Shown: positions 1 to 25,605, counted from the first letter of the stretch. The stretch is 64,000 nt of DNA from an uncultured delta proteobacterium (GCA_963696385.1 CAVOKF010000006.1:1-64000), one strand, 5' to 3'. The notes: generated by a model not told the origin, from the letters alone. A program made the numbers and translations.

Positions 1-430
1 ACCGGGCAGGGAGCGGGGACTGGTTGAACCACCGCCGCAGCATCGGTAGCCGTAGGGTCGAGGATGACGGCGGCCACGAGGGCCAAACTCGCCGCCACCG
101 AGTCGCAGTCTGTGCCCTGCACCTCGCGGCGCAGATCCTCCCCGTCGAGCGGCCCGTCGAGTGGATGGAACGTCAGTTGGCCGAAGACCTGCCCGTCGTC
201 GGCCCGAAGTTCGACTCGCATGGACGGGGCACGTTCGTCCGCTTGGGGCTCTCGAATGCGCACGCCGCGCGCCTCCAGACGGCCGAGGAAGGCCTTCGAC
301 CCGGGCAATTGGGCGCTGCCTTGACGGTGAGACGGACGGGATTACTAGGTCGATCGCCGGACGCCCCGGCCGCCGCGACCGGCGCGTAGACGAGGAGGAT
401 TGCGAGCACTGCGATGGGTCGAGCGGACAT
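1..430 (-). pseudogene. Secreted hypothetical protein, frameshifted near 302, running off the window edge
   Basis: Signal-peptide-like N-terminus (MSARPIAVLAILLVYAPVAAAG). One extra G at ccggg (~301-305) restores an open frame (...SKAFLGRLEARGVRIRE...REVQGTDCDSVAASLALVAAVILDP) to position 1. Confidence 0.55.
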
Positions 431-501
431 GGTGGCGCAAGAACGAATGATTCCGCGGAGAGGCTTGATCGATCACGGATTGGAACTTCTCCCTCCCTTC
501 G

Positions 502-985
<484 letters not shown>

Positions 986-1033
986 TCACGTTAGCAGGCG
1001 CTACGGCGGCCGCCGGGCCGCCCGCCGAACGGG

Positions 1034-1099
1034 TTATATGTGACCGCCGCGGTTTCCGCGGCTCTTCGTTGATCGATACGCTTTCGACCGGCTACTCGC
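1034..1099 (-). repeat. R repeat, left half only
   Basis: Minus strand reads GCGAGTAGCCGGTCGAAAGCGTATCGATCAACGAAGAGCCGCGGAAACCGCGGCGGTCACAT, close to the copies at 46575 and 43690. Confidence 0.85.
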
Positions 1100-1492
1100 C
1101 GACGTCGTCTCGATCGCCGAGCCCGTCGACGCTTGGCTCATCCGGTCCTTCAGCCCTTGGTAATTCAAACGCGTCGCCCGCGACGTCGCCCACACCCCTT
1201 CGCGGCGAGCCACCTCGATCGCCGCGTTCCATAGCTCCTGCGGCACCCTCGACCGCTTGCCTCCGCATCCGGCTCGCCACCGCTCCATCCGCCCGCGCAG
1301 ACTTTCTAGAGCGCCCGTTGCCCCGATACTCGTTCGGTTCATCAGGTCTTCCTCCTGACCGCGACGCTGCCCGAGTCACGCGTCGACTTCACGCATTGTT
1401 GCCGAATGCCACCGCCGCCCGCCGCGACCTGCCCCTCTCGCACGCCCCCCCGCCAGACCCCCCTCGTACTCCCCGCCCCGCAGCCGTGCCGC
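1100..1492 (-). mobile_element. Fragment of the IS66-like element (tnpA-like 5' part), cut by R
   Basis: Near-identical to 52318-52711. ORF 1034..1342 matches 52147..52560 up to the R junction. Confidence 0.85.
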
Positions 1493-1911
1493 TAAAGGCG
1501 GCCGTGCCTTCCCATAAGTGCCTTCTGCTGCTCGCGGATGGATCTGGCCGAAGTGGCCCATGCCGCGGCTCCGCACTTTTGAGCAAGCAACGTGCGTTTG
1601 ACGACGGAGCTACTCCGCCAAATCGAGCGCAATGGCGAGGAGGGACGCGTGATGCTGGTGGCCAGCCTGGCGGGCATCACGCCGCTCGGCATGCCGCAGC
1701 AGCTTGGGTAGCTCACGCGCCGGGAGCTTCATTCCACGCGTCCACCGCACGAGCATCAGCTGGTACGGGTCGGCAGTGCTGCAGGGCGAACGGATCTGAC
1801 TCACGGCTCCTTCTAGATTCCCCATCTCCAGAGAATTACTCAGCTCCGAGGCCGGGCCACGCCCTCCTTGACCGCACCCCCCGGCAGAGCGCACAGTTTT
1901 GCTACGGCGAT

Positions 1912-2718
1912 ATGGAACCCTATGTCATCAAGCAAGGCGACCATCTTGCTCTTCTTGCTTACAAGTTCGGTTTCGATGCCGATGCCGTCTGGAACGACCC
2001 CGCCAACGACGCCCTTCGCAAGGTTCGGCCCAAACCGAACATTTTGCTGCCCGGTGACCAACTGTACATCCCCGACCGGGTCGACAAGAAGCCGGTGACA
2101 CTCGTCACGGGAGAGCTGAATACCTTCGTCTCTCCCGATCCACCGACGGTGACAATAACCCACCAGTTCGTCGGCAACGACGTCTCTGCTTACGCAACGA
2201 AGGCGTACTTGGTCCGGGAGATCGAGCAGCTGACCGGGCTCCAGACCGATGCCGACGGCGTGGTGAAGTTCGAGGCTCCCGTGACGCTCGACACCGCTAC
2301 TGTCGTCTTCACCGATACGGGCGAGTCGTGGGCGCTGGCTATTGGAAATCTGGACCCGATCGACACACCCGTCGGCGTCTTCGAGCGACTCCAAAATCTC
2401 GGCCACATCGATAGCACCGCCCAATACGATTTTTGGTGCTTGGCAAACAACCTCGACGTGATGCGCAGCGGTCTTCGCTCACTCAAGGGAGCCCAACCCG
2501 GCAGCAACCAGGCTGCTCCAGAGCCGGCGCCATCCGAGAGCGGTCCCCCGTCCTCGGCTCCGCCGAGTGGCTCGGGCTCGGCGTCCTCTTCGGGTCCACC
2601 GCTCTTGACCCAGGCCGGCAGCCTGGATCTGATGAACAGCGACATCTGTGGCCTGGCTGACGATGGCTCCCTCGACGCCGAGACCGCTGGTCTGCTGCTT
2701 CAGGTCTACGGTCACTGA
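1912..2718 (+). CDS. LysM-like / peptidoglycan-binding domain protein
   Basis: MEPYVIKQGDHLALLAYKFGFDADAVWNDPAN...NILLPGDQLYIP is LysM-like, followed by GNLDPIDTPVGVFERLQNLG. ATG 1912 is preferred over the ORF-track start. Confidence 0.75.
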   Translation: MEPYVIKQGDHLALLAYKFGFDADAVWNDPANDALRKVRPKPNILLPGDQLYIPDRVDKKPVTLVTGELNTFVSPDPPTVTITHQFVGNDVSAYATKAYLVREIEQLTGLQTDADGVVKFEAPVTLDTATVVFTDTGESWALAIGNLDPIDTPVGVFERLQNLGHIDSTAQYDFWCLANNLDVMRSGLRSLKGAQPGSNQAAPEPAPSESGPPSSAPPSGSGSASSSGPPLLTQAGSLDLMNSDICGLADDGSLDAETAGLLLQVYGH

Positions 2719-2790
2719 TGTTGAAAACCGATCCTTTGTGCGAAGCGATGCCTCACGGCTGAACCGATGAGCACCTGCTGAGTAGAGCGC

Positions 2791-3462
2791 GTGAGTACAG
2801 CAATGGCTGGACCTAACGATCCCCGCAAGGCAGGCGCGTCCCCTGCTCCGGCCCCATCCGGTTCGGGCTCCTCCGTTCCTGCCGGTACCCCTGCTCCCAC
2901 GATCGTACCGGTTGCGCCTGGCGAGAACGGTCATAGCGTGGCTCTGGCCGGTCCTGGCATCATCTACGCCAACCTGCGGGCACGGCCTGTCGACGGCGTT
3001 CCCCTCGCTTACCACCTTTATATCGAGTAAGTAAACACGAGCACGAACGAGCGGCTCATCTTCGAGGCGATGCCCGACTACACGAAGGGAGTCTTCGTGG
3101 ACGGACGCGAACAGCTTTACGGGTACCTGCACGGTATGGCCCCACGTCCCTGGGGGGTGCCTCGGGCAGATCCCGAAGCGACTGAATCCTTGCCGAGCGC
3201 ACATGAAGCCGAGGACAATGCCTACTCGCGCATGACCGGCGTGAATGGCCGCACGAAGTATCTCCTGGAATTTTGGCGGCGAATCTACAACACGCGCCAT
3301 ATTGTGTACGACGCGACCGGCAACAATAGCAACGTCTGGGCGGTCACCGTGGCGACGGGGAGCGGCCTCGAATGGCCGGATGGATTGCCCGTTTGGCGCG
3401 GCGAGTTGCCGGGGATTCCTTGGGCGCATACTTTCCGTGCAAATGACGAGGGTATGTTGTAG
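2791..3462 (+). pseudogene. Hypothetical protein (possible effector/toxin) split by one in-frame TAA
   Basis: ORFs 2791..3030 and 3070..3462 share a frame: YHLYIE*VNTSTNERLIFEAMP. Confidence 0.6.
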
Positions 3463-3537
3463 TGAGGGCGGATCTCCTCGGCGGCGCCGCCGGCCGCGAG
3501 GCGACGTCGTGGATTCGCATGCCGGGAGCTTTTTGAT

Positions 3538-3846
3538 ATGGTCACCGACATCTTTTGGGTGCGTATTTTGAAAGGTCGTTTCGCTTTATTTGTCGCAGTG
3601 GTGGCGTGCCTCGTCGCTTTCATTGGGATTCGTTGCGCTGTTCGCATTCAGATCGACAGAGCGTTGTATCGGACGTATCCAATGCGCGACCCTGTCGAGC
3701 AAGCCGCTCGCGCGCACTTCACTCAAGCGAAGGAAATCAGGGAGGCGGAGGCGTCGCTCGGATTGCTGGCGGCTGTCGTCGCCATTCCTGTTGGCGTCCT
3801 GCTTGCGCGGCGCGAGTTGCGACGGTCTCGGAATGACGCGCCCTGA
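3538..3846 (+). CDS. Small two-TM membrane protein
   Basis: Two hydrophobic segments, directly downstream of 2791..3462. Confidence 0.55.
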   Translation: MVTDIFWVRILKGRFALFVAVVACLVAFIGIRCAVRIQIDRALYRTYPMRDPVEQAARAHFTQAKEIREAEASLGLLAAVVAIPVGVLLARRELRRSRNDAP

Positions 3847-4036
3847 ATGACCGAAAGCCCTCACCGAGGATGCGCGGGACACATGGTGTTTCGCGAGTTC
3901 GCTTTCGATGAGGCTGTTCGACCTGTCGTCGTGCGTCATTCCCGACACGGCGACGCCCCCTACGAGCGTCATTCCGATCATTCGGTAACCCGCCACTTGC
4001 GACGGATGAAATCGCGCCCAGGTATCTCGCGTGTGG

Positions 4037-4147
4037 GCGAGTAGTAAGCCCAAAGTGCGTCGGTCGACGAAGAGCCACGGAAGAGGGCGCGGAAACATAT
4101 CGCGTCTTAGGGGCGTTCGTTATCGCTGAATCGGCGAACCGATTTGG
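4037..4147 (+). repeat. R repeat, intact 111-bp reference copy
   Basis: Matches the sequence obtained by removing the intron and the IS110 from 18170-24197. Terminal hairpin AATCGG-CGAA-CCGATT. Confidence 0.95.
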
Positions 4148-4645: not shown

Positions 4646-5365
4646 ATGCCCGTAGCGAAGGCGCTCGACAAGAAGTGGCTCTTTCGCGAGCTCGAGCGCG
4701 ACCGAAAGAAGAAGGCGCGTGAGAAGATCGCGAACCTCGCCGAGCAGCTCCGCGAAGCACGCCGGCGCCGAAAGCTGGCGCTCCGCGAGGCGAAGGAACG
4801 ATGCCGCGCCGAGCGCATCGCGGCGCGCGAGCGTGCCCGCGCGATGCGGCTGCGCGTGCTCGAGGAGCTGCGCGAGGCGATGCGCGCGGAGCGCCTGGGC
4901 GCGCGCCAGGCGTGCACGGCGCGCCTGGGCGAGGCTCGAGGGATCAAGGACTCCATCTTGCGGGCGCGCGCCGAGCTCGAGGCGGAGAAGAAGTACGAGG
5001 CGGACCTGCGCCGCATCGAGCGCGCGAACCGCCAGCGCCGGAAGGAGGCGCCGCGCGTGACGCGTATCGAGCGCCAGGCGGAGAGCGACGACGAGGTCCG
5101 CTCGAACATTCCCCCCGAGCTCGTCGCGCTGTTCGAGCGCGTGAAGCGCGGGATCAAGGCGTCGCCCCGCATGTCGCGGACAGAGGCGTTCCTGCACTAC
5201 GCCGAGGAGAACCCTGACGACGTGCTCGCGGCTACGGAGGACAAGACGGATGCCCTCATCCGCGAGCTCGAGGCCCAGCAGAGGGAGGCGCGCCGTTCGC
5301 TGCACCGACCTCCGCCTCGTCCGCCGCGGTACACCCCCGAACAGCTTGCCGAGGTGCCGTTTTGA
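4646..5365 (+). CDS. Arg/Glu-rich coiled-coil hypothetical protein
   Basis: GAGGTG RBS, strong codon bias, ends in EVPF. Confidence 0.75.
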   Translation: MPVAKALDKKWLFRELERDRKKKAREKIANLAEQLREARRRRKLALREAKERCRAERIAARERARAMRLRVLEELREAMRAERLGARQACTARLGEARGIKDSILRARAELEAEKKYEADLRRIERANRQRRKEAPRVTRIERQAESDDEVRSNIPPELVALFERVKRGIKASPRMSRTEAFLHYAEENPDDVLAATEDKTDALIRELEAQQREARRSLHRPPPRPPRYTPEQLAEVPF

Positions 5366-5388
5366 CCCGCTATGGTACATTCTCGGGC

Positions 5389-5577
5389 ATGAACGGGCAC
5401 GGCACCAACGGGAGCAACGGCGCTACGCGCAGGCGCGCGAAGGCGCCGAAGCGCCCCAAGGGCGGGGTGACCAAGGCTCAGCAGGTGGCCCGCCGCAAGT
5501 TCATCGCGGAGAGCCCGGTGAAGCCGTCGCGCGAGGGGATGGAAGCGATCCACCGCGAGCTCGTCGGCAGCGAATGA
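5389..5577 (+). CDS. Putative antitoxin
   Basis: Small basic ORF overlapping the PIN gene by ATGA. Paralog at 25606. Confidence 0.65.
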   Translation: MNGHGTNGSNGATRRRAKAPKRPKGGVTKAQQVARRKFIAESPVKPSREGMEAIHRELVGSE

Positions 5578-5951
5578 AGGCCAGCGGGATCACCGCTGAC
5601 ACCGGCTTTCTCATCGGTCTGGAGCGGCAGAAGCAGCGGGCGATGGACCTGCTCGGCTACGCGAGTGCGAGGAAGCTTCGGATCAGCGTGCCTGTCGCAG
5701 CCGTGGCCGAGTGGTGGCGTGGAGACTCTCGTCAGGCTCGGATCCTCCGCCTCGTCGCAGCCGAGGACATGACGGAGGCGCTCGCGAAGAGCGCGGGCGA
5801 GGCACTTGCCGCAGTCCCCGGCGCGACCGTGGTCGACGCGATCGTGATGGCGTCGGCCGCGGCTCGCGGGGGGGTGGTCTACACCTCGGATTTCGACGAC
5901 CTGTCGCGCCTGCGCGCCCACTTCCGGGCCGTGCGCGTTCTGACCGTCTAG
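5574..5951 (+). CDS. PIN-domain (VapC-like) toxin
   Basis: ITADTGFLI, VAEWW, VVDAIVMASA, VYTSDFDDL: acidic PIN motifs. Confidence 0.85.
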   Translation: MKASGITADTGFLIGLERQKQRAMDLLGYASARKLRISVPVAAVAEWWRGDSRQARILRLVAAEDMTEALAKSAGEALAAVPGATVVDAIVMASAAARGGVVYTSDFDDLSRLRAHFRAVRVLTV

Positions 5952-5996: not shown

Positions 5997-7007
5997 TCAT
6001 GCGGGAGCGTCGGCTGCCTGCTGGTCGCTGACCAGTCGCAGAAGCTGCTTGGCTTGCGCGACGAGGTGGTCGTAGGTCATCACGGTGATGTTGTGCATCC
6101 TTGCGTTGAGTCCGCGGAGCGCCCGTGTTTGCTCCGGGCGCCATTTGTGCGATCGACCGATCACGATGGTCGCGCGTGGGTGGTACGCAACGAGTAACGG
6201 ATGCGCCTCGAGCGAGCGGCTCATCGTGTCCTGCAGGGCGTCCATGTACTTGTGGGCCTGACCAATGGCGCGAGACGCATCCGAGCTGAAGTAATACGAC
6301 CCGTGCGACCGGTCCGCGCGCAGCACGGTGGCGTCGGGCCGTTTGAGCTCGACGACGTCCCGAAAGCCCGCGAGGTCGGTAAGCAAGAGATCGACAATGT
6401 TCCGGGCGTCCAGGCGTCGGACCTCATCCCGCATGACGTACGCGTGGCCGAACGCCCACGGATGGCGCTCGCACCACTCTTGGTAGACGTCTTCGCGGGC
6501 TTCCCCGGTCTCGAGCGCGCCCGTGAGCTCGTCGGCCGCCGCGTGGAGGTCGGCAGTGCGAAGTGCGCCACGAAGAGCTGTGGAGAGATGCCCCCGAAGG
6601 CGCGGATCTCGAAGCTGCGTCACAACAGCCGGGTCCGCCAGGAGCTGAGCCAGGACGGCAACAAACTCCGCGCGCTCGTTGAGCGAGAGGGCGGAGAAGG
6701 CGGCCTGCAGAGGCTCGATCGTCATGGGCAACGCGGAGCGGTTCGGCAGCTCGGAGAAGAACTGCTCAAGCTCCCGCAGCGTCGCTGGGCGCATCGCAAA
6801 GTGCCGCGCTACCGCGGCGCGTGAGCCGTGCTTGGCCAGCACCGCGCCGAAATCTCGCATCGTGCGCTCGCGGCCAGCGACCAGCGCCCAAGCGCGCAAC
6901 AGCTGGTTCCTGGTTTTGCCGGAGATCAGGCTCCCCGGCCTGTGCCGTGAGGAGAGCTCGTCGATCGCTTGCTCGAGGTCCCAGTCTGGGTCGAAGGGGT
7001 CGTCCAT
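5997..7007 (-). CDS. Shedu (SduA/DUF4263)-like PD-(D/E)xK nuclease with extra N-terminal domain
   Basis: EDVYQEWCERHPWAFG, IVDLLL, VVELKRP, YFSSDASRAIGQAHKY (QxxxY), IVIGRS, VMTYDHL. Confidence 0.85.
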   Translation of the reverse strand: MDDPFDPDWDLEQAIDELSSRHRPGSLISGKTRNQLLRAWALVAGRERTMRDFGAVLAKHGSRAAVARHFAMRPATLRELEQFFSELPNRSALPMTIEPLQAAFSALSLNERAEFVAVLAQLLADPAVVTQLRDPRLRGHLSTALRGALRTADLHAAADELTGALETGEAREDVYQEWCERHPWAFGHAYVMRDEVRRLDARNIVDLLLTDLAGFRDVVELKRPDATVLRADRSHGSYYFSSDASRAIGQAHKYMDALQDTMSRSLEAHPLLVAYHPRATIVIGRSHKWRPEQTRALRGLNARMHNITVMTYDHLVAQAKQLLRLVSDQQAADAPA

Positions 7008-7120
7008 GGAACCAGCGGGCGGCTGCTCTCGCCGTGGGGCAGCCGCAGGCCTTCTACCGTCGCGGCGAGCCGATGTGAAGGCACGTTGACGGGGCGGCGT
7101 AGATCGCGCTTGATAGGTCC

Positions 7121-8050
7121 GTGACAGCGCTTGCCGAGGAGATTGAAGGAGGGCGTCGCCGTCGCCAGGCGACCGACGGCAAGCTACCGAAGCCTCACCC
7201 GTTCCTGAAGTGGGTCGGCGGGAAGGGGAGGCTCCTCGAGCAGTTCGGAAGCCTGCTGCCGCCGACGTTCGACAGGTACTTCGAGCCGTTCTTCGGCGGT
7301 GGCGCTCTGTTCTTCTCGCTCGCCCCGCGGAGCGCGGTCCTCTCGGACGTCAACGCGGAGCTGGTGGACTGCTATCGCGCGGTTCGCGACGAGGTCGACG
7401 ACGTCATCGCGGCTCTTGGCGCGCATCGCTACGAGAAGGCCCATTTCTACGAGGTGCGAGCACTCGACCCGCGGTCGCTGACGTTGTCCGAGCGCGCGGC
7501 GCGGACGATCTTCCTCAATCGATCCGGCTTCAACGGGCTCTATCGCGTGAACCGGCAGGGGCGCTTCAACGTCCCCTTTGGCCGCTACACGAACCCCACG
7601 CTCTGCGACGCGTCCAACCTGCGGGCCTGCTCGCGCGCCCTCGAAGGCGTCGAGCTACGCTGCGGCGACTTCGCGGCTGCCGTCGTCACTGCGAAGCGCG
7701 GGGACTTCGTCTACTTCGACCCGCCGTACGTCCCGGTTTCGACGACAGCGAACTTCACGCACTACGCGGCCGGGCGGTTCGACTGGGCCGAGCAAGAACG
7801 GCTAGCGAAGCTCTTCGCGGATCTTTCGCGTCGGGGGGTGCTGGTGATGCTTTCGAACGCTGACACGGCCGAGGTTCGCGATCTCTTCGACGGCTTCCGC
7901 CTCGATCGGGTTGCAGCGTCGAGGAGCGTCAACTCGAACCCGGAGAAGCGGGGGAAGGTTGGCGAGGTCGTCGTCCGCAATTTTGGTCCGGGAGCTCGGC
8001 CGACGAACGGCGCGATCGTGCCACGCCGCAGACGCCAACCCGCTCGGTGA
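7121..8050 (+). CDS. DNA adenine methyltransferase (Dam/D12 class)
   Basis: LKWVGGK, YFEPFFGGGA, LNRSGFNGLYRVN, FNVPFG, FVYFDPPY. Confidence 0.95.
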   Translation: MTALAEEIEGGRRRRQATDGKLPKPHPFLKWVGGKGRLLEQFGSLLPPTFDRYFEPFFGGGALFFSLAPRSAVLSDVNAELVDCYRAVRDEVDDVIAALGAHRYEKAHFYEVRALDPRSLTLSERAARTIFLNRSGFNGLYRVNRQGRFNVPFGRYTNPTLCDASNLRACSRALEGVELRCGDFAAAVVTAKRGDFVYFDPPYVPVSTTANFTHYAAGRFDWAEQERLAKLFADLSRRGVLVMLSNADTAEVRDLFDGFRLDRVAASRSVNSNPEKRGKVGEVVVRNFGPGARPTNGAIVPRRRRQPAR

Positions 8051-8056
8051 CGGGCG

Positions 8057-9757
8057 CTAGGTACCGATCTGCACGCGCCACCGCGTGTAGTGAAACGGGG
8101 CTAGCTCCTTCTGCCACGCGGTCAGCGTCTGAGCTCGCCTGCTCGCCGTGACCGTGCTCATTGTAGGTACCGCCCCCCGGATGAAAGCGTCAGCTGACTC
8201 GGGGTCGAGCTCGACGAGATTCGAGACGCCGGCCCAAGTGATCCATGCGGCGCCGCAGTCGCTCTCCTCGAACAACACGGCGACGGACATCCGTCGCTGA
8301 TCCTCGCCTAGTCGAGCCACCTGTTCGCCAGCGCCAGTCAGCGTGTTGTGCTCCGACAGCAGACGGAGGATGCGGCCGGCATGCTTGTAGTAGTTGACCT
8401 GGCGCGCTGACACGTCGAGAGCTTCTGGCGTGACCGCAGCCCCGTCTCGGAGAAGATCGAGAAGGCGAAACACTCGCGTCAGATCGTCTGCCTGCGGGAT
8501 CTGACCTGTGTCCAGCCTCGTCGAGGCGAAGGCCCGCACCGGCGGCAGCACGCTCTTCGCCTCGGCAAATGTCACGGTGATGGGCGCCCGTCGAAGCGGC
8601 TCGTCGCCTTGCGCGTCCACCATGATCACTTCGAGCGTCGCCTTGTACTGCGTGAGGGTCTCTAGGAGGACGCGGTACTTCTGCGCGTCGATCGCAGAAA
8701 CGGTCAGACGACCTTCTAGCGTCGCGCTGTCTGCGCCCAGGAGCTCCCGCAGCAGCTCGAACGCGCGCTGCGAGTCTGGCGCCTCGTCGATCGAGGCGTT
8801 GATGACGTACGAGCCTGCTCGTCCCTCAAGGGGGCGCATGACGGGGCTCAAGTCGAAGGCCTCGCATGCAGACTCGAACAGAGCCCGCCAAGAGTCGATG
8901 ACGGGTGAGACCACGCCAAACGAGGGCCTCGGCGTCGGATCGGACACCCGGATCGCTTGGACAGGTGCCCCCACCTCGCACGAAGCCACGAGAGCTCGAC
9001 CCTCTACCTCGCGGCGCCGCAGGAATTGCTGTGCGTCGAGTAGCGCCTGCTCATCGGGAGCTGCGCGGACCGCATCCGCGACAGGCTTTCCGAGCGCCTC
9101 CAGCGCGCCGAGGGTGGCCCTCCAGAAGGGGAGGTCGTCGAGCCCCTTTCCCCTGGCACGGGCAACGATCTCCGTGCGGTCGGCCGATGCCTGGGGGTCG
9201 TCCGACTGACCGGGCAGTGGTGCGCCCGAAAGCTTGTTGATGATGTCCGTCAGAACGCGGCGCGGGAACGAAGCAACCAGATCTGTCTCGGTGGCGGCGA
9301 CCAGAGCGTCGATCGTCGCGTCATGCACGACGGCCGGCTGACCCAGGGTGCGGCGGACAAACCGGGGGAGGTCCATCAGAAGGACCCCGGGAAAGCTTTC
9401 ATCGCTCCGGAGCCAAGCACTCACGGCGGTAAGAAGGTTGACCTCGGTCGAGGTGTCGCCGAACACGGCAGCGGACATCAGGTCGAGCGTCACGATCTCG
9501 GCGAATGGCGGACGTTGCTCGAGCCGCTGGGTGAGCAAGAACGACAGCGTCCGCGCTGCAAGCGTGTGTCGCAGTGGCCGCAGGAGTGCCCAAAGCCGAA
9601 TGAGGCCGAGCGCCTCGTCGGACTCGAACGCGCGTACGGCGAGCTCGATGGCCTTTGCCTCGGCGACGAGATCGACTCCGGCCGCTCCGTCACCGAGCGA
9701 GGTGAACGCTCGCGCCGCAGCACGCAGGGCTCTGGATTGCTCGTCGGTCGGACTCAT
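8057..9757 (-). CDS. 566-aa hypothetical protein with C-terminal winged-helix-like domain
   Basis: Long ORF coupled to the upstream gene. C-terminus IPQADDL...RQVNYYKHAGRILRLL...RRAQTLTAW is paralogous to 10089..10649. Confidence 0.85.
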   Translation of the reverse strand: MSPTDEQSRALRAAARAFTSLGDGAAGVDLVAEAKAIELAVRAFESDEALGLIRLWALLRPLRHTLAARTLSFLLTQRLEQRPPFAEIVTLDLMSAAVFGDTSTEVNLLTAVSAWLRSDESFPGVLLMDLPRFVRRTLGQPAVVHDATIDALVAATETDLVASFPRRVLTDIINKLSGAPLPGQSDDPQASADRTEIVARARGKGLDDLPFWRATLGALEALGKPVADAVRAAPDEQALLDAQQFLRRREVEGRALVASCEVGAPVQAIRVSDPTPRPSFGVVSPVIDSWRALFESACEAFDLSPVMRPLEGRAGSYVINASIDEAPDSQRAFELLRELLGADSATLEGRLTVSAIDAQKYRVLLETLTQYKATLEVIMVDAQGDEPLRRAPITVTFAEAKSVLPPVRAFASTRLDTGQIPQADDLTRVFRLLDLLRDGAAVTPEALDVSARQVNYYKHAGRILRLLSEHNTLTGAGEQVARLGEDQRRMSVAVLFEESDCGAAWITWAGVSNLVELDPESADAFIRGAVPTMSTVTASRRAQTLTAWQKELAPFHYTRWRVQIGT

Positions 9758-10092
9758 ACAAACGCCAGTCCCGTGATTACCTCGATGTCGACGCGTGCGG
9801 TCTTGTTCCGCGGTGGAAGATTCCGGTTGCGGAAGGACCGACGCACGGGAGCGTTGGCTCCGCCAACCTGGTGCGCGTTCGTAACATACCGTCGCGCATC
9901 AGCGAACGCCTGAGCTCTGAGGCCCTGTTGGGCCGGCGTGCACCCAGCCTCGAGCGCGTTGAGGTCGGCTTGCGCGTCCGCGGCAAGGCGGGGTGTTGGC
10001 TGCGCCCACGGTCGCGAAAGCTCGGGCGCTATGTCGACGCCCTGCACCTGCAACCGCCCCCGGTGGACCGGCTGCGCTCCTGCGGCGTTCAC
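9754..10092 (-). CDS. 112-aa hypothetical protein
   Basis: 4-nt start/stop overlaps with both neighbours. Confidence 0.75.
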   Translation of the reverse strand: MNAAGAQPVHRGRLQVQGVDIAPELSRPWAQPTPRLAADAQADLNALEAGCTPAQQGLRAQAFADARRYVTNAHQVGGANAPVRRSFRNRNLPPRNKTARVDIEVITGLAFV

Positions 10093-10649
10093 GCTGCGCC
10101 GCTCTTCGCAGGCCGCGCCGCGCGAGCCTTCGCGTCGAGGCGACGCCCGCGAGGTTTGGGCTTGCGCACCGTGGGCTGCTCGACGGCCGCGGCGGCCGGC
10201 GCCGGTGTCGTTCGGAGGTGCTCACACCAACGCCGTAGCGTTCGGCCCCGACGCTTGACCATCCCGGGTGGGAGATTGCTCCGCTGCTGCAGGAAGGTCT
10301 CTGCGGAAGAGGGGTCGACCTGGTCGATTGTGGATGCTCTGGACCAGGCAAGCCAAGCTTGCCCGCAAGCACTCTGTTCGAACTGACCGCGAAGCACAGC
10401 GGCGCGCCTTCCGGCCGAGAGCGCGAGGACCCGGCGACCCGTGGGCGTGATCTCGCCGCCCGTGGAAACCAAGCCGAGCATGCGCGCTGCGTGCTTGACG
10501 TAGTTCACGTGACGATGAGAGAGGTCGAACGTGTCCTCCGAGAGCTCACCGCGGCTGCTCAAGACCGAGACTGCTTCGAGGACACGCTCGATGGAGTCGA
10601 ACTGCGGGATCAGCTTCGAGTCGACTCTCGGGTCACCGTTGGTACGCAT
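10089..10649 (-). CDS. Stand-alone winged-helix-like domain protein
   Basis: IPQFDSIERV...RHVNYVKHAARMLGLV...FEQSACGQAW...RRGRTLRRW. GGAG RBS upstream. Confidence 0.8.
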   Translation of the reverse strand: MRTNGDPRVDSKLIPQFDSIERVLEAVSVLSSRGELSEDTFDLSHRHVNYVKHAARMLGLVSTGGEITPTGRRVLALSAGRRAAVLRGQFEQSACGQAWLAWSRASTIDQVDPSSAETFLQQRSNLPPGMVKRRGRTLRRWCEHLRTTPAPAAAAVEQPTVRKPKPRGRRLDAKARAARPAKSGAA

Positions 10650-11177
10650 GCGCGTCTCCTAGTCGTTTGCGCGAGCAGGCCCGGGAAACGTCCTTGCTCA
10701 GTTTGTACGGTACTCCAGGCCGCTTCTACGGTCGAGAACGCCCGGATGTTCGCCGGCACCTCGGGCAGGGACGCGTGCCTACGACGTCTCGACGCTGAGG
10801 GCCTCGTAGAGACTGCCGAGCTTGCTCGCGGGGAACGCCTCTCGTCCGGCCTCCAACCTCGCACGCGCGCCCTCGACGCCCAGCTTGCGCACACCTGGTC
10901 CTGCGAGACGGACCGCGCCCTGGTGCCGACGTCCGTCGCGGCGGGCCGATGTACGGAGCGGAATCGCGGCGGCATCGAGCCGCGAGCATCTACTCCAATG
11001 AGTAAAAGCTCGCCCCCGGCCCCGGGCTGCGCGTGCAGGACGCCGCGTCTACGACGCCGAGAGAGGTCAGATGCCTGAAAGCGCGATGCGCATGGCGATG
11101 GCGAGGAGAGCCTCCGCATGCAGCGCCGCGAGCGCGCCGTCGACGAACTCGGGTTTGCTGCTGACGCGGCTTCCGCT

Positions 11178-11612
11178 TCATGGCTCGGTGAGGAGCGTAT
11201 ACAGCCCGCCTAGCTTGCCTGCAGGGAACGGCTCCTTCCCGGCCTTGAACCTCGACACCTGCGCGCGCTCGACGCCGAGCTTGCGCGCGAGCTCGGCGCC
11301 GAGGCCGCGGCGCTCGGCGGTTTTCCGCCGGAGCAGTGCGCGCACCTGGTCCTGAGAGACGTCGGCCGACGCGCGCGTCGGGAGGGGTCTTGCCGGCGGG
11401 GCGACTGGCGCGGCGGCCTCGACGCCGGCGACGTCGACGGCGGCGGCCTTCGCGGCGGCCCGAATGAGCTTGCGCATGACGCTCGAGAGCGAGACCTCGA
11501 CGCCGAGGTCCTCGAGCTCCTGGCGCTCGCGCTCGACGAGCCCCTCGAGCAGAGCGCGATCGCGCGCGCTGAGACGCAGGGTGACGAGCACCGACGGTCC
11601 GTCGCCCATCAC
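11178..11612 (-). CDS. DNA-binding regulator (RHH-like N-terminus, XRE-like HTH C-terminus)
   Basis: VTLRLSARDRALLE...SLSSVMRKLI and AELARKLGVERAQVSRFKAG. Overlaps the recombinase stop codon. Confidence 0.75.
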   Translation of the reverse strand: MMGDGPSVLVTLRLSARDRALLEGLVERERQELEDLGVEVSLSSVMRKLIRAAAKAAAVDVAGVEAAAPVAPPARPLPTRASADVSQDQVRALLRRKTAERRGLGAELARKLGVERAQVSRFKAGKEPFPAGKLGGLYTLLTEP

Positions 11613-12574
11613 ACCAGCCCCTTCGCCGGGTTGTTCACGAAGACCGTCGCGTGCTGGATGTACCCCCGCGCGACCCGCTCGGACTTGTGGCCGGTCTGCC
11701 GCATGATCGCCTCGAGCGGCCGACCCTTCTCAGCCGCGGTGGTCATGAAGCCGGAGCGCAGCGAGTGCCCCCCGTAGCGCGAGGGATTGAGGCCCGCAGC
11801 GAGCGCCGCGCGCTGGACGACGCGCGCGACCGACCGATCCGAGAGGGCCGTCTTCGCGACGTGTCCGTGTCGGTCAACGGCGCGGAAGATCGGCCCTTCG
11901 GTGATCCCGGCGGCGTCGAGCCATGCGCGGAGCGCGCGCACGGCGCACAGCGCGGGGGAGGACGCATACGGGACGCCCTTGTCGAAGCCCTTGCCCTCCT
12001 GGTCCCCCTTGGAGCGTCGAACGTGGACCAGGAGGCCCTCCGCCTGGAGCTCGACGTCGGCGACGTTCAGCGCGACGAGCTCGGAGCGGCGGCACGCGCT
12101 CGACCACCCAAGCGTCAGGAGAGCGCGGTCTCGCAGCCCGACGAGGTCCTCGTCGAGCGTCGCGACGAGTGCCGCGAGCTCGTCGTCGCTCACCGGCGCC
12201 TTCTTCGTCGACGACGTCCCGATCTTCCGGCGGATGCCGGCCATCGTCTCGCGCACGGCAGGTTCGCCGCGTGGCCAGACAAACCCGCGCGAGCGGTGCT
12301 CGTGTGCGATCGCCGCGAGGGTCTTCTCGATCGTGGAGACCGCGGCGCCGGCGTCGGCGAGCGCGGCGAGGTACACGGCCACCGTCGCCGGCGGCGCCGG
12401 GCACGCGGACAGGCCGCGCGAGGTGCACCACCCGTCGAAGCCGGCGAAGCTCGAGCGGTACGCGCGCCGGGTGCTCTTCGCCTTGCCCTCGGCGACGTAG
12501 CGCCGGGCGCTCTCAACAAGCTGCTCGATGGACTCAACATCCGTGGGCGTTCGGCGGGCGAGGGGGGCGGGCAT
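11609..12574 (-). CDS. Tyrosine recombinase, Cre-like
   Basis: RDRALL...RRSEL, RRSKGDQ, HSLRSG, QTGH...GY: complete R-K-H-R-H-Y set. Confidence 0.95.
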   Translation of the reverse strand: MPAPLARRTPTDVESIEQLVESARRYVAEGKAKSTRRAYRSSFAGFDGWCTSRGLSACPAPPATVAVYLAALADAGAAVSTIEKTLAAIAHEHRSRGFVWPRGEPAVRETMAGIRRKIGTSSTKKAPVSDDELAALVATLDEDLVGLRDRALLTLGWSSACRRSELVALNVADVELQAEGLLVHVRRSKGDQEGKGFDKGVPYASSPALCAVRALRAWLDAAGITEGPIFRAVDRHGHVAKTALSDRSVARVVQRAALAAGLNPSRYGGHSLRSGFMTTAAEKGRPLEAIMRQTGHKSERVARGYIQHATVFVNNPAKGLV

Positions 12575-12780
12575 GGGGTCCTTAGGGGCCGGCGGGTCAC
12601 GTCCGAGAAAGGGTGCTTCTCGGACACGAGGTCCTGCGACCGCCGATGGCCGTTGGCACCCTCGCAGATGTTGAGTGTATTACAGTCGCTATCTTCGCGC
12701 CATCGCCGGCGGCCGGCAGCGGCGACCCAGGCGTTCACGCTCGGCCGTCGCCCCGTGCACCCTGCCGAGAGGCGATCGCT

Positions 12781-13713
12781 CTAGACGACTTCGTCGGGAG
12801 CCAGAGTGCACGGAGCCGGCGCCTCGTGAGGATCGATCTGAAGGGTCGCGTGGTCGATGTCGAAGCGCTCGTGAAGTTCGTGGCAAACCCCAGCGAGGAA
12901 CGTCGGCTCGCACGAGTTTCCCGGCATGACCAAGTGCGCCGTCAGCGCGGTCTCCGTCGTGCTCATCGCCCAGATGTGCAGGTCGTGGACCTCGATCACG
13001 CGCGGCAGCGAGCACAGGAACGCCTTCACCTCCTCCGGCGCGATGTTCTCCGGTACGGCGTCGAGCATGAGGTTCATTGACTTACGCATCAGCGACCACG
13101 TTCCCGCGAGGATCGTGAGCGCGAGGACGATGCTCACTGCGGAATCGAGCCAGAGCCACCCCGTGCCCATGATGATCCCGCCGGCGACGGCGACGCCGAG
13201 GGCCAGCGCAGCGTCTGATGCCAGGTGCAGGAAGGCGCTCCGGAGGTTCAAGTCGTGCGCGCGATCCCTCATGAACAGCAGCGCGGACGCGGCGTTCACG
13301 CCGGCGCCAATGAGGGCGACGACGATCATCGTAAGGCCCTGGGCGGGCTGGGGCGCAAGGAGGCGACGGAACGACTCCCACGTGAGCCCGCCGGTGACGA
13401 AGAGCAGGATGAGAGCATTCGCCACCGACGCCACGATCGTCGAGCGGCGATACCCGAACGTCCGGCGCGTCGATGGTTTCAGCGTCGCGAGGGCCGTCGC
13501 GCCCCATGAGAGCCCAAGGCCGAGCACGTCACCAAGGTTGTGCCCGGCGTCCGCGATCAGCGCCATGGAGTGCGCGATGGCCCCAAAGACGACTTCGACA
13601 ATAACGAAGGCTAGGTTCAGGGCGATGCCGATGAGGAACGCCCGACCGACGCTCCGCGCGTCGACATGGTGGTCGTGGTCGTGATGCTCGTGGGGATGTC
13701 GGTTCGATCCCAT
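12781..13713 (-). CDS. czcD: Cation diffusion facilitator (CzcD/ZitB-like) metal efflux
   Basis: His-rich N-terminus, ALIADAGHNLGD, NLRSAFLHLASD, VHDLHIW, HATLQ. Confidence 0.92.
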   Translation of the reverse strand: MGSNRHPHEHHDHDHHVDARSVGRAFLIGIALNLAFVIVEVVFGAIAHSMALIADAGHNLGDVLGLGLSWGATALATLKPSTRRTFGYRRSTIVASVANALILLFVTGGLTWESFRRLLAPQPAQGLTMIVVALIGAGVNAASALLFMRDRAHDLNLRSAFLHLASDAALALGVAVAGGIIMGTGWLWLDSAVSIVLALTILAGTWSLMRKSMNLMLDAVPENIAPEEVKAFLCSLPRVIEVHDLHIWAMSTTETALTAHLVMPGNSCEPTFLAGVCHELHERFDIDHATLQIDPHEAPAPCTLAPDEVV

Positions 13714-13724
13714 GGGGGCTTCCC

Positions 13725-14657
13725 TCAGTCCCGCGCGTGCGGGGGTAGGACGACGGGAGCCTCCGGCGCTCGGTCGAACGAGTAGATCACGCCGAGGCCC
13801 GCGCGCCAGTGGTCCACCTGGTAGTCGGCCCGGTAGTCCTCCGCGACCGGGAGCGACACGTACATGAAGAACCGCGTGCGCGCCGCTGGCATCCAGACGA
13901 CGGTCGGGCTGGCGAAGACCTCCCAGCCACCGCTGACGAGGTTCGCGCCGTTGATCACGTCGGGGTCGTGAACTTCGGCGGCCAGTCCCATCTGCAAGCT
14001 GAGCATGTGGGCCTGCTCGTCCACCGGGGTGTACGCGAACCCCAGGCCGGCGAGCCAGTTATCGCCCTTCTTGGATCCTGTGTCGTCGGTCGCGTTGAGC
14101 CGGTAGTAGCCGAGGCCTACCGCGGCGAAGTGGCTCCACTCGAAGCCGCTCATCGCGGCGAAGATGTAGTTCATGGGGCCGTGAAACGGGGCGTAGTCCT
14201 TCTCGCCCGTCGGAGGCTCGAACGCGACGCTGAGGAGGGCGAAGTTGCCGTCTTTTCCCGTCGCTCGCTGAAGCCCGGTGAAGTCGAAGCGGTACGAGGT
14301 GCTCACGAGCAGGTTCTCGCGGGCAACGCACCCACCGCACGAGCTGAGGGGGCCCGTCTGTTCGCCCTGCGGCGTGCGCGCGTTCTCGTAGGTGAACGTC
14401 TGGACGAGCGCCAGCGACCAGGGAACCGATCGGAACGGCGTAACCCCGGCGCTGAGGATGTAGGCCGTCTCCTGGTCGTAGGTGCTGCCGTTGCCGAAGA
14501 CGTGCTCGTGAGCCTGCAAGCTCACGAACCCCTCGGACTCGACCGCGAGCGACGACTGGGGGCCGAACAGAGCTTCGTGATGCGCCGACGCTTGTCTAGA
14601 CGACAGAAGACCCAACAGCGCGGCTGCACTCGCCGCGTACTTTCTTCGCTTGCACAT
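13725..14657 (-). CDS. Exported, probably outer-membrane beta-barrel protein of the metal operon
   Basis: Signal peptide ending ASA-HH, alternating beta-strand pattern, in operon with the CDF gene. Confidence 0.7.
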   Translation of the reverse strand: MCKRRKYAASAAALLGLLSSRQASAHHEALFGPQSSLAVESEGFVSLQAHEHVFGNGSTYDQETAYILSAGVTPFRSVPWSLALVQTFTYENARTPQGEQTGPLSSCGGCVARENLLVSTSYRFDFTGLQRATGKDGNFALLSVAFEPPTGEKDYAPFHGPMNYIFAAMSGFEWSHFAAVGLGYYRLNATDDTGSKKGDNWLAGLGFAYTPVDEQAHMLSLQMGLAAEVHDPDVINGANLVSGGWEVFASPTVVWMPAARTRFFMYVSLPVAEDYRADYQVDHWRAGLGVIYSFDRAPEAPVVLPPHARD

Positions 14658-14780
14658 GAACGTTACTCCACGAACAGCCGCGCCCCTTCGCTCGAAGGAG
14701 CGGGCGAGCCGATGCCTGTGGGGGCGCAGCTCGCCAGCGCGCGAAGCCGGCCAACGTGCGCACCCGGTTGTGAACGACGT

Positions 14781-15176
14781 TCAGGCTCGGGGCGGTCGGT
14801 AGACGGACGGCAATGGCGGTCCCGGAGGACCCTCGTCGTCGCCGTCGCACCCGAGCCGAAGCGAAGCCTCTCGGGGCGGCACGAAGTCCGTTGCAGCGGC
14901 CGACCGCGAAAGCGAGGCCCCGCTCTGGTGCGCGTGATGGCAGTTCGGACAGCCGGGAGGGCATTCGTGGCCTGCCGCGTCGTCGTCGTCCGAGTCGTCG
15001 TGGTGGTGCTCCCCGACGCTCACGACCTGCACCAGGTCGCGGACGAAATGCACGACGCCCGAGAGCTGGACGGAGACGAGCACCGTGAGGACCTGGAGCA
15101 CGCCGAGGAGCGAGCAGAGCACGCGGCGCGGCTGATGGCCGACCAGGATCCAGCGGGAGCTGCGCTCGCGGTTCAT
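14781..15176 (-). CDS. Small His/Cys-rich exported protein (DUF2946-like)
   Basis: TM helix, HHHDD, HECPPGCPNCHHAH, C-terminal RPPRA. Confidence 0.65.
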   Translation of the reverse strand: MNRERSSRWILVGHQPRRVLCSLLGVLQVLTVLVSVQLSGVVHFVRDLVQVVSVGEHHHDDSDDDDAAGHECPPGCPNCHHAHQSGASLSRSAAATDFVPPREASLRLGCDGDDEGPPGPPLPSVYRPPRA

Positions 15177-15364: not shown

Positions 15365-15658
15365 ATGAAAAATACACGCACGAAGCACACGGCAGAATTC
15401 AAGGCGAAGGTTGCGCTTGCGGCGATTCGGGAGGAGGCCACGGTCCCGGAGCTGGCGCGTCGATACGGGATTCACCCGACGCAGATCTTCAAGTGGAAGA
15501 AGACGTTCGTGGAAAACGCAGCACGCGTATTCCAATCCGAGGGGGCCAGGAGCGATGGTGGCGAGGAGCGCGAGCGCGAGGCGGAGCTACTCAAGAAGAT
15601 TGGCGAGCTCACGGTTGAACGCGATTTTTTATCGCGCGGGCTCGGGCGGCTGCGGTGA
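15365..15658 (+). CDS. IS3 OrfA
   Basis: [28 protein letters not shown]. Confidence 0.92.
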
Positions 15659-16497
15659 AGGACCGACGCGCGATGGTGGCCCCGGACAGCAAGGTTTCGG
15701 TCCGCCGACAATGCGAGCTTTTGCGCGTATCGCGCTCGGGCCTGTACTACGTGCCCGAGCCAACCGAGCCCGAGGAGCTTGCGCTGATGCGACGGATCGA
15801 CGAGCTCCATCTGCGGTTTCCGTTTTACGGGAGCCGCAAGCTCGCAATCGCGTTGCGAGGCGAAGGCCACGAAGTGAATCGAAAACATATCCAGCGACTG
15901 ATGCGGGTCATGGGGCTGGAGGCCATGGCTCCTCGGGCGCGCACGAGTCGGCCGAGTCAAGAGCACGCGATCTATCCTTACCTCCTTCGCGGCCTCGAGA
16001 TCAGCCGCATCAATCAGGTGTGGGCAAGCGACATCACGTACGTGCCGCTGGCGCACGGCTTCGTGTACCTCGTCGCGATCCTGGACTGGTACTCGCGGCG
16101 GGTTCTCGCCTGGCGCCTGTCGAACACGCTCGATCCCGGCTTCTGCGTGGACGCCCTGGAGCAGGCACTTGCCCACTTCGGTGCGCCCGAGATCTTCAAT
16201 ACCGACCAAGGCGCGCAATTCACGTCCGACGCATTTACGAAGGTGCTTCGGCGACGCGGCATTCGCATAAGCATGGACGGCAAGGGCCGCTGCATCGACA
16301 ACGTGTTCGTCGAGCGGCTTTGGCGATCGGTCAAATACGAGGAGGTGTACCTGCATGCCTACGAAGACGTGCGCGAGGCGCGCGCCGGGATCGGTCGCTA
16401 CATGACGTTCTACAACGAAAGCCGCCCGCACCAAGCGCTCGGCTACCAAACACCCAGGGCATTCTTCGACGCACTGTGGTCGGGCAAGGCTGCGTGA
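15655..16497 (+). CDS. IS3 OrfB DDE transposase
   Basis: [33 protein letters not shown]. Confidence 0.95.
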
Positions 16498-18824: not shown

Positions 18825-20144
18825 ATGCCCGACGCATCGACGTTGGAAGATATGTCACCGAAACTATTGAAGGTAGTGGAGCGAGCGAAAAGGGAGCCCG
18901 AAGGACGGTTCCACTCGCTGGCACATCTTATCGATGTGCACGCCTTGATGCGAGCCGACAAGCGCATGCGCAACGATGCGGCGGTCGGCGTGGATGGGGT
19001 CACGAAGGAGCAGTACGGGCAGGCCCTGGAAGAAAATCTCCGAAGCCTGCACGAGCGGTTGGTGGCGAAGCAGTATCGCCATCAGCCAATCCGGCGTGTT
19101 CACATCCCAAAGGAAAGGGGCAAGACACGGCCGATTGGGATTTCTGCGTACGAGGACAAGTTGGTCCAGGACGCCCTACGCGAAGTGCTGGAGGCGATAT
19201 ACGAGCAGGACTTTTTGGAATGCTCGTACGGCTTCCGGCCCGGTCGCGGTGCCCATGACGCCATTCGAGCCCTCGACCGTATTGCGCATCAGGGTAAGGT
19301 GAGCTGGATTTTGGAGGCCGACGTCGTGTCCTTCTTCGACAGCTTGGATCGCACCCAGCTGAAGGAGATGCTCCAAATTCGGGTGGCCGATGGGTCGCTG
19401 ATGCGGCTGATTGGCAAGTGCTTGCACGTTGGGGTGCTCGACGGCTCGGAATACGCCGAGCCGGACACGGGCGCAGCGCAAGGGTCCGTGCTCTCGCCGA
19501 TACTCGGCAACGTCTATCTCCACTACGTAATGGACCTGTGGTTCGAGCGCGATGTCAAGCCGCGTCTGCGCGGGGAAGCTCACCTCGTGCGTTATGTGGA
19601 CGACTTCGTGATGACATTCGAACATCAGGACGACGCGGAGCGGGTGATGGACGTTCTGGGAAAGCGGATGGGGCGTTTCGGGCTGACCCTGCACCCGGAC
19701 AAGACCCGCCTCTTGCCCTTCCGGCGTCCGCCGGCGGAGCAAGTTGGCGGCAAGGGTCCGGCCACCTTCGACTTTCTGGGATTCACGCTGTACTGGCAGC
19801 GCTCCCGAAGCGGTCGATGGGGAATGACGTGCAAGACACGGAGTGCGCGCCTACGACGGTCGATTCAAGCCGTCGCGGACTGGTGTCGTCGCCATCGACA
19901 CCTTCCGGTCAAGGAGCAGCACGCCGCGCTCACGAGGCGCATCCAAGGTCACTTCAACTATTTCGGCATCAGCGGCAACTTTCGCAGTCTGCTTCTGTTT
20001 GCCGAAGAGACGAAGCGAGTTTGGTATAAGTGGCTCCGCCGTCGGAGCCAACAAGCGCACCTCACCTGGGAAAAGTATGACGAGCTTCTGCAGCGTCTTC
20101 CTCTCCCGCGTCCCCGCATCAAGGTCCGAATCTGGGGGACGTAA
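18825..20144 (+). CDS. ltrA: Group II intron RT/maturase (YVDD, no endonuclease domain)
   Basis: AVGVDG, RPIGI, SYGFRPGR, QGSVLSP, RYVDD, FDFLGF, domain X. Confidence 0.95.
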   Translation: MPDASTLEDMSPKLLKVVERAKREPEGRFHSLAHLIDVHALMRADKRMRNDAAVGVDGVTKEQYGQALEENLRSLHERLVAKQYRHQPIRRVHIPKERGKTRPIGISAYEDKLVQDALREVLEAIYEQDFLECSYGFRPGRGAHDAIRALDRIAHQGKVSWILEADVVSFFDSLDRTQLKEMLQIRVADGSLMRLIGKCLHVGVLDGSEYAEPDTGAAQGSVLSPILGNVYLHYVMDLWFERDVKPRLRGEAHLVRYVDDFVMTFEHQDDAERVMDVLGKRMGRFGLTLHPDKTRLLPFRRPPAEQVGGKGPATFDFLGFTLYWQRSRSGRWGMTCKTRSARLRRSIQAVADWCRRHRHLPVKEQHAALTRRIQGHFNYFGISGNFRSLLLFAEETKRVWYKWLRRRSQQAHLTWEKYDELLQRLPLPRPRIKVRIWGT

Positions 20145-20198
20145 CCCACGAGCCAGCTCAGCGGAAGAGCCGGATGGTGGCAATCTCCTTGTCCGGTT

Positions 20199-24330: not shown

Positions 24331-24618
24331 ATGGCGAAGCCCCTGACCCCTGCTGACCTGCCTGATGACGTCGCGCAACTCGCGCAAGCACAGATCGCAG
24401 CCGGTCGGTTCGCGTCGGTCGAGGAATTCCTTCGCGCGACCGCCGCGGCGTTCCGCCTCACGGACCGAGTCCCGGCGGTCGATGACGAAGCCGCGTTCGT
24501 CGCGGCCGTCCATGAAGGACTCGCAGACCTCGCGGCGGGGAACGTCCGGTCTCACGAGGACGTCGTCGCCGACACCGAGCGGCTGTTGGCCACGTACGAA
24601 GACCGACGCCCTCAGTAA
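24331..24618 (+). CDS. ParD-like antitoxin
   Basis: AQIAAGRFASVEEFLR, AVHEGLADLAAGNV. TAATG coupling to the toxin. Confidence 0.8.
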   Translation: MAKPLTPADLPDDVAQLAQAQIAAGRFASVEEFLRATAAAFRLTDRVPAVDDEAAFVAAVHEGLADLAAGNVRSHEDVVADTERLLATYEDRRPQ

Positions 24619-24902
24619 TGCGGCTCGCTTGGACGCGACGCGCGGAGCGCGACCGTAAGCGGATCGTCGCTTACGTCGCCGAGCGCAATCCCGCCGCCGC
24701 GCGCCGCATCGTCGCCGCGATCGACGCGCAGCTCGAAGCGGTGCTGGATTTCCCGAACCTTGGGACGCAGGGGCGTGTGCCAGGCACGCGCGAGTTCGTG
24801 GTCCTGCGGCTACCGTACATCGTCGTCTACACCGTGATGGAGGACATCGTTTACGTCGTCCATGTCTGGGATGGGCGGCGCGACCTCCTACCGAAGCCGT
24901 AG
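24618..24902 (+). CDS. RelE/ParE-family toxin
   Basis: LAWTRRAERD, FPNLG..GRVPGTRE, PYIVVY, VWDGRRD. Confidence 0.9.
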   Translation: MRLAWTRRAERDRKRIVAYVAERNPAAARRIVAAIDAQLEAVLDFPNLGTQGRVPGTREFVVLRLPYIVVYTVMEDIVYVVHVWDGRRDLLPKP

Positions 24903-24909
24903 GGCGGGA

Positions 24910-25283
24910 TCAATCGTCGCGAAACCACGACGACAGCCACTTCACCGCCCGTCGGCCATGCTCCTCCGTGCCGCCTCGAACGCGCTTCGACGCGACATCG
25001 ATCCCCACAACCGTCTCTTGCATCCCGAGCGCGCTACAGAAGAGCATGCATGCGTTGAAAAACGCCAGCACGGCACCGCCGCCGTCCTTCAAGTTCCCGA
25101 GCTGCCAGCTTCCGGCGTATGAGACGACGAGAGAGGCCACGAAAGCCGTCCTGGGTCCACTATGCCGGTGAGCTTCCGAAACGTATTGGTCAGGACTGCG
25201 ACGAGAAGCGACGCGCCGGCGTAAGTGCCGAGAAACTCCCATGTAACGAATTTCGGTGTTTGAGTCGAGGCCGGGTCGGCCAT
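24910..25283 (-). pseudogene. Small membrane protein, frameshifted near 25150
   Basis: N-half in ORF 25089..25463 (MADP..., AGGGAGG RBS), C-half in ORF 24910..25242. Confidence 0.55.
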
Positions 25284-25285
25284 GT

Positions 25286-25510
25286 CTATCCCTCCCTTTC
25301 GTATGAACTCACGCTGACAGGGCCATTCTTCTTGCCGCTCATTCGTCGGCCCTGCCCGATGCCAGCGGCCAGGCACAGTCTCAAGTAGTCGAGCAGTGGC
25401 TTGGCCTCGACCGCGACGCTGGTCATAAAGTCGCGATCGCCGCCGACGACCATGCCCAGCCAATTGTTTCCGGCCCTATCGAACACCCACGATCCGGAAT
25501 CGCCCGGCGT
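25286..25510 (-). pseudogene. C-terminal fragment of a trypsin-like serine protease
   Basis: PGDSGSWVF...LGMVVGG motif. The 5' part is replaced by the duplicated TA block. Confidence 0.6.
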
Positions 25511-25605
25511 CGCTCGCTGCGGCGTCCGCCGCCTCGTACGCCGCGGTACACCCCCGAGCGATCTGGCGAGGTGCCGTTTTGACCTGCCGTGGTACATTCT
25601 CGGGC

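Follow-up and report, generated by a model that had tools for sequence, protein, structure and literature searches.

PD-T4-10 is a validated abortive toxin–antitoxin (TA) defence, according to the report that describes it (Vassallo et al. 2022, PMC9519451), and in PANGU, as set out in its preprint, a YejK-like nucleoid protein serves as sensor and activates its effector (bioRxiv 10.64898/2026.04.06.716658). A further preprint, on BECR-Tox2/Menshen, places one toxin family in both polymorphic toxin loci and anti-phage systems (bioRxiv 10.64898/2026.08.28.747851). The locus considered here lies at 5997..12574 of a 64,000-nucleotide (nt) stretch of DNA from an uncultured delta proteobacterium (GCA_963696385.1, CAVOKF010000006.1:1-64000), the whole of which we call the window, and contains two overlapping genes for proteins of 112 and 566 amino acids (aa). 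The chances appear evenly balanced that these two genes form the core of a TA-type abortive-infection system in which the toxin is held by a fused immunity domain while the rest of the large protein, a chassis of two domains, senses the state of DNA. This core, with an optional solo winged-helix gene and an optional methylase inside a mixed cluster, is apparently undescribed; a literature search, outside which lay subscription papers and preprint supplements (10.1101/2021.10.19.465003, 10.64898/2026.08.28.747851 candidate-toxin tables), found no published description of the 112-aa plus 566-aa unit.

The product of the first core gene (112 aa, 9754..10092, minus strand), a predicted toxin, is very probably a polymorphic-toxin tip domain, judging from its homologues, an identity that an earlier reading of this DNA (the sequence-only reading) had overlooked. 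It is a stand-alone copy of an unnamed C-terminal domain that comprises 793 clusters without a family or fold match and that sits at the C-terminal tip in 31/31 long carriers; of 43 scanned, 10 hold eCIS_core and 6 hold RHS. The 112-aa open reading frame (ORF) is the bare domain, an N-terminal trafficking domain being absent, and the unit is not a secreted polymorphic toxin. Conserved residues include H10-R-G-R-x-Q-x-Q-G, S26, W29, R59, R100-x-D102-x-E104 and G108-x-A-F, and given its basic isoelectric point (pI 11.3) and the conserved H, R, Q and R-x-D-x-E, the toxin probably works as an enzyme on nucleic acid. A Pfam scan of 100 family members gave no consistent match (each listed family occurred in 1 member), and neither did PADLOC with the 100 members or NCBIfam with the protein of the window. 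Sequence searches of the PDB with queries A1, A2 and A8 returned nothing below E 0.3, a look-up in the Atlas with homologue P0012 returned unnamed clusters only, below 0.9, and the structural model had no Foldseek (PDB, viral) or VIA-wide match, which is no proof of a new fold; nor was a match to BECR seen, absence of a match again being no proof of fold. The tree of the domain is weakly resolved; the stand-alone copies do not all fall together, and we read from it neither the direction nor the number of captures. Further stand-alone or tip copies occur at L055:3956-4860, L057:3959-4869, L065:10510-12560 and L056, and the genes behind them make up a second family without a name (similarity judged by eye), with an ApeA-domain gene after the L065 copy and an FRG-domain gene before the L055 copy.

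The second core gene (566 aa, 8057..9757, minus strand) encodes an N-domain (residues 1-205), a middle domain (~255-410) and a C-terminal domain (~411-560). Residues 1-207 model as a HEAT/ARM-like solenoid, and in the whole-protein model the structure matches are generic HEAT/ARM repeats only. We built a profile of residues 1-205 from 12 homologues and compared it with 2,941 ORFs from related loci; the only non-member matches were the genes directly downstream of toxin carriers L051 (E 3e-8) and L049 (E 2e-7), the next best match standing at E 0.016, and HHalign aligned the N-domain with these two genes over 146 columns (93.6%, E 2e-7). The L049 carrier holds an eCIS core and the L051 carrier is without a Pfam match. 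Because it is homologous to genes directly behind toxin carriers, the N-domain is likely an immunity domain; this homology, too, had escaped the sequence-only reading. Behind carriers L052, L054-L057 and L065 the downstream genes are small and unrelated to the N-domain, and unrelated small genes behind different toxin carriers are usual for immunity genes.

The remaining ~300 residues form the chassis, which has been retained behind four or more different N-domains, each with its own small upstream gene, PD-T4-10A/B-like pairs included. Its first part is an alpha/beta domain and its second a DUF7226-like winged helix (E 1.7e-5; pI 5.9) with predicted DNA binding. DUF7226 is matched by the C-terminal domain in 12/12 chassis members, and the modelled domain has a helix-helix-helix-hairpin pattern compatible with a winged helix. 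The DUF6575-DUF7226 protein P0169 shares 40% identity over 92% with residues 255-560, and for the corresponding part of homologue P0018 the top Atlas clusters were DUF6575/DUF7226 (0.94, 0.91, 0.90). No literature was found on DUF7226, nor on DUF6996, DUF6997 or PF23871. Two more N-domain types stand on the chassis in P0171-P0173 and at L068:9030-11449, the latter with a 219-aa unknown gene upstream and an N6/N4 methylase downstream. In proteins of ~560-630 aa at L026, L028, L029 and L033 the DUF7226-like domain is instead N-terminal; those of L026 and L028 scan as AAA_21 ATPases, and that of L026 matches the HEC-01A/AriA models.

The pair recurs in two phyla. It is present at seven myxobacterial loci (the window, L009, L011, L012, L014, L015 and L066), the titled related loci being Myxococcota and the host of the window hence likely a myxobacterium, and the toxin gene lies directly upstream of all 7 myxobacterial full-length 566-type genes that have upstream DNA. 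We searched 391 genomes from the phylum of L013, the Cyanobacteria, with a DUF6575-chassis alignment holding neither toxin nor HEAT domain, and obtained five chassis proteins of ~560 aa; the toxin gene was directly upstream in 5/5. The distribution is patchy and rare: the two-gene unit is absent from 30 same-genus genomes (0/30), and the toxin domain in any context occurs in 4/400 genomes in each of two samples. Defence genes near the loci include type I restriction-modification (RM) at L009, an Eco57I/MmeI-type gene with SNF2 at L014 and an Mrr_N-kinase at L066; this last (L066:541-1686), an Mrr_N-protein kinase fusion, replaces the methylase and is convergent with the chassis gene. The sequence-only reading had proposed a candidate new defence island, and this holds to the extent that the three-gene operon, of which the pair is part, matches no PADLOC model and recurs; Shedu and the recombinase fall outside it.

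The third gene of the operon (10089..10649, minus strand) is accessory and encodes a 186-aa solo DUF7226-like winged helix with a basic tail (pI 10.6), which shares 33% identity with the 566-aa protein (its residues 407-552) and matches DUF7226 weakly (E 0.024). It is present at 3/12 loci, with homologues in the same position at L011 and L012. The name 'winged-helix operon' given earlier therefore fits the 186-aa protein and the 566-aa C-terminus, which carry the DUF7226-like domain, but not the unrelated 112-aa protein. No classical restriction endonuclease (REase) had been recognised in the operon, and matches to REase_II, DUF6996 and DUF6997 are indeed absent from all three proteins.

Converging on the operon, 6 nt from the 566-aa gene, is a Dam-family (D12) adenine methyltransferase gene (7121..8050, plus strand; PF02086 and TIGR00571 above cut-off, the former at 192.6 bits vs a cut-off of 22) with intact motifs and DPPY at 200, and the layout 186-112-566 convergent with Dam recurs complete at L011 and L012. 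Of the first 16 chassis loci, 11 have an adjoining methylase (Dam at 4, an N6/N4 family at 7), as do 6/12 toxin-plus-chassis loci and 6/7 myxobacterial toxin loci; these counts come from two methylase queries only, with several contigs ending near the gene and kin that are not independent. Members of the N6/N4 family are 58-69% identical and occur in convergent, tandem and divergent placements. As a mild control, a methylase match within 1.5 kb was found at 0/10 DUF6575 loci without the chassis. The earlier suggestion that the methylase is a self-marking partner gains from its adjacency at the myxobacterial loci and loses from its absence at the cyanobacterial ones; it is a frequent, non-obligatory companion. 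A second Dam-family gene, 50% identical, lies at G000 C4:304474-305388 with no chassis gene nearby, and at L008:1-1443 an N6/N4 methylase is fused to DUF7226 and is convergent with a DpnI-family gene.

The unit resembles polymorphic toxin systems (Rhs, eCIS-core/DUF4157) in its C-terminal domain family and in the overlapping stop and start that lead to a downstream gene in the immunity position, but it differs in having a free-standing toxin domain and an immunity-type domain that continues into a 300-residue chassis. Like PD-T4-10, it consists of two overlapping ORFs, small then large, with an overlap here of 4 nt, and PD-T4-10B relatives with DUF6575 carry the same middle and DUF7226-like chassis and have PD-T4-10A-like genes before them; unlike PD-T4-10, the small gene and the N-domain of the window belong to unrelated families. 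PD-T4-10_A was matched by 0/100 members of the 112-aa family, DUF6575/PD-T4-10_B had no match in the 566-aa protein and one among 12 alignment members, at E 0.27, and the chassis proteins of L006, L013 and L020 match PD-T4-10_B over the N-terminus only. Dam-linked type II REase-like DUF6996-DUF6997-DUF7226 proteins share the C-terminal DUF7226-like domain and an adjoining D12 methylase (L038), whereas here the place of DUF6996/DUF6997 is taken by a HEAT-like domain together with a toxin tip encoded by its own gene. The logic proposed for PANGU in its preprint, a DNA-binding sensor with interchangeable effectors leading to abortive infection, is alike, but the sensor here is fused to a predicted inhibitor, and a YejK-like Pfam match was found in none of 12 chassis proteins. 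BECR-Tox2/Menshen differs in being another family with a KH motif, a PIN fusion, and ParB and ABC ATPase partners. On the features compared, the unit belongs to none of PD-T4-10, type II RM and PANGU.

Among the relatives of PD-T4-10, the PD-T4-10A-like proteins at L006:1475-1891, L020:2751-3182, L058:5546-5983 and L059:5564-5971 keep R34, S68 and H115, a pattern that we take to recall ADP-ribosyltransferase/RES folds and that would presumably make the small PD-T4-10-like gene catalytic. The chassis-bearing pair at L058 lies between antiterminator Q and lysis genes, in a prophage on a Rahnella plasmid.

In the mechanism that we propose, the HEAT-like immunity domain of the 566-aa protein would hold the 112-aa toxin inactive. 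We infer that the two proteins bind each other, and there is good reason, from homology, to think that the N-domain neutralises the toxin. Sensing of infection would fall to the middle and winged-helix domains, for which the trigger may be changed DNA met by the chassis, either unmethylated invader DNA or the loss or degradation of methylated host chromosome; the triggered chassis would then release or activate the toxin, and the infected cell would be stopped. The 186-aa protein might serve, where present, as a DNA-binding partner or an autoregulator, and the methylase next door might add a self-mark, likewise optional. An anti-phage role of the unit is somewhat favored, and the gating of toxin release by methylation is put forward tentatively. 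It is conceivable, if rather doubtful, that the unit represents a modular class of methylation-gated suicide defences, in which a single winged-helix chassis that reads DNA, a relative of the recognition end of the Dam-linked restriction-like proteins, is joined to exchangeable immunity domains taken over, together with their toxins, from inter-bacterial weapons (at least four pair types, PD-T4-10-like included), and in which a toxin of so-far unmatched fold would be freed on wrongly methylated DNA.

Several observations weigh against the abortive-infection reading. The stand-alone toxins at L009, L014, L015 and L066 form a long-branch clade in which the HRGR motif is altered in at least three, and loss of activity is possible for some of these copies. 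At 25.2, the 566-aa protein scores just below the DUF7226 cut-off of 27, and that its C-terminal domain binds DNA is something we infer. The cyanobacterial and myxobacterial N-domains match weakly (HHalign 1.9%, P 0.026), and housekeeping genes surround the five cyanobacterial loci, where neither a methylase (0/5 by the two methylase queries) nor a defence gene was seen within ~4-6 kb. Such two-gene insertions would also suit a plain addiction or orphan toxin–immunity module, in which the winged helix merely autoregulates the operon and methylases are nearby through gene clustering; a similar helix-turn-helix (HTH) gene is duplicated nearby, and type II antitoxins commonly have DNA-binding domains. 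We consider such a module unlikely, in that it would leave unexplained a two-domain chassis kept behind so many N-domains, one N6/N4 methylase family beside three partner types in three orientations, and the lack of methylases at the chassis-less DUF6575 loci. The polarity of PD-T4-10 is a further objection, since in its description the large second gene (B) is toxic and the small first gene (A) neutralises it (PMC9519451), the opposite of what we propose. A toxic chassis protein and a neutralising small protein seem quite improbable here: the chassis is common to relatives of the PD-T4-10 pair, but the PD-T4-10_B model covers those relatives over DUF6575 only (~17-124 of 353), a domain that the 566-aa protein lacks, no invariant catalytic-looking acidic/histidine set stands out in its middle domain, and the small domain sits at the toxin tip of Rhs and eCIS proteins.

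A restriction-like enzyme in parts would come near the sequence-only reading without its Shedu: the winged helices of the 566-aa (and 186-aa) proteins would recognise an unmethylated site, the ex-immunity domain would be an adaptor tethering the 112-aa protein as a nuclease, and the methylase would protect the host. The position of DUF7226 at the C-terminus of the Dam-linked REase-like protein, its fusion to a methylase at L008 and the myxobacterial adjacency all fit, but methylases are missing from 5/5 cyanobacterial loci, the methylase belongs to either of two unrelated families, the operon proteins gave no match to a nuclease family, and GATC is not avoided in the genome (observed/expected 1.00), which together make this distinctly unlikely. 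That all seven genes act as one island, with Shedu cutting, Dam marking self and the recombinase mobilising the whole, is very improbable and largely refuted by co-occurrence. The GC content is even over the whole block, and in a related strain (~93-96% identical, run X7) contig pieces preserve both the operon and the junction of Shedu with Dam, so that, at short range, the block holds together. The operon also recurs elsewhere, as had been asked of such an island, but Shedu and the recombinase-HTH pair occur only at the window among 12 loci (1/12 each), that pair has other neighbours in the genus, and neither att-like repeats nor a skipped-form joint spanning the block was seen.

The interest of the unit extends beyond this locus. 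A widespread toxin domain is now defined and given a candidate immunity family, and the toxin–immunity pair links Rhs/eCIS weapons to a chassis that also serves PD-T4-10-like pairs. Two questions become directly testable, namely the signal read by winged helices of the DUF7226 type and the trigger of PD-T4-10-like systems. Should methylation indeed gate release, restriction-style reading of self and non-self and abortive infection would be joined in a single protein.

The other genes of the locus appear to be separate neighbours. Shedu (SduA; 5997-7007, minus strand; PADLOC SduA E 2e-89; SduA_C PF14082 at 62.5 bits vs a cut-off of 27) is divergent from Dam with 113 nt between, as described earlier, and is an ordinary member with motifs I-IV intact (E172, D206, E220-x-K222, Q250), following definitions in 10.1101/2023.08.10.552793. 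Its proposed part in the system finds no support, as no Shedu match was present at any other chassis locus examined, where the L011 contig ends inside Dam, and only distant Shedu genes were found, in 3/300 genomes of the order; it is likely an independent defence gene encoding a predicted nuclease. The tyrosine recombinase (11609..12574, minus strand; PF00589, Phage_integrase 60.9 vs a cut-off of 27.1) retains R162, K189, H270-x-x-R273, H296 and Y305, has homologues in 9/30 same-genus genomes at E<=1e-40, and is coupled to a 144-aa HTH-type protein with a weak YdaS-like match (11178..11612, minus strand). The HTH gene follows the recombinase at L077, L078 and L081, where the operon is absent, and DNA common with same-genus genomes spans ~11166-12688 only. 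The pair is a separate module in a cluster of defence and mobile-element genes, and the idea that it mobilises an island finds no support; searches of the locus for a tRNA, att-like repeats and a sigma-70 promoter came up empty. A 33-codon remnant (10794..10889, minus strand) is 61% identical in translation to the C-terminus of the 144-aa protein by tblastn.

All seven ORFs are open where the sequence-only reading placed them, with third-position GC content of 0.73-0.91 and 4-nt overlaps at the 186/112, 112/566 and recombinase/HTH junctions. Its 'otherwise decayed region' was overstated: the immediate flanks are open ORFs, on the left a 239-aa gene, charged and helical, paired with a PIN-like gene (4646-5951), and on the right a cation-efflux gene (12781-13713) with two genes upstream of it (12781-15176 in all), yet the window is rich in insertion-sequence (IS) and intron sequences. 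An IS3-type transposase pair lies at 15365-16497, and 18825-22020 holds a reverse transcriptase (RT) ORF with an RT-like ORF after it. The sequencing runs that hold most of the stretch are soil metagenomes, and no RNA data set is among those listed as holding it. Positions 1-4146 recur with 99.4% identity elsewhere in the assembly, at C7:2156-6305, through a recent duplication or an assembly overlap, and a BrnT toxin fragment at 689-973 is broken by a repeated element. Within 24618-26168, a 92% identical PIN copy (25791-26168) lies near a ParE gene, with more copies on other contigs.

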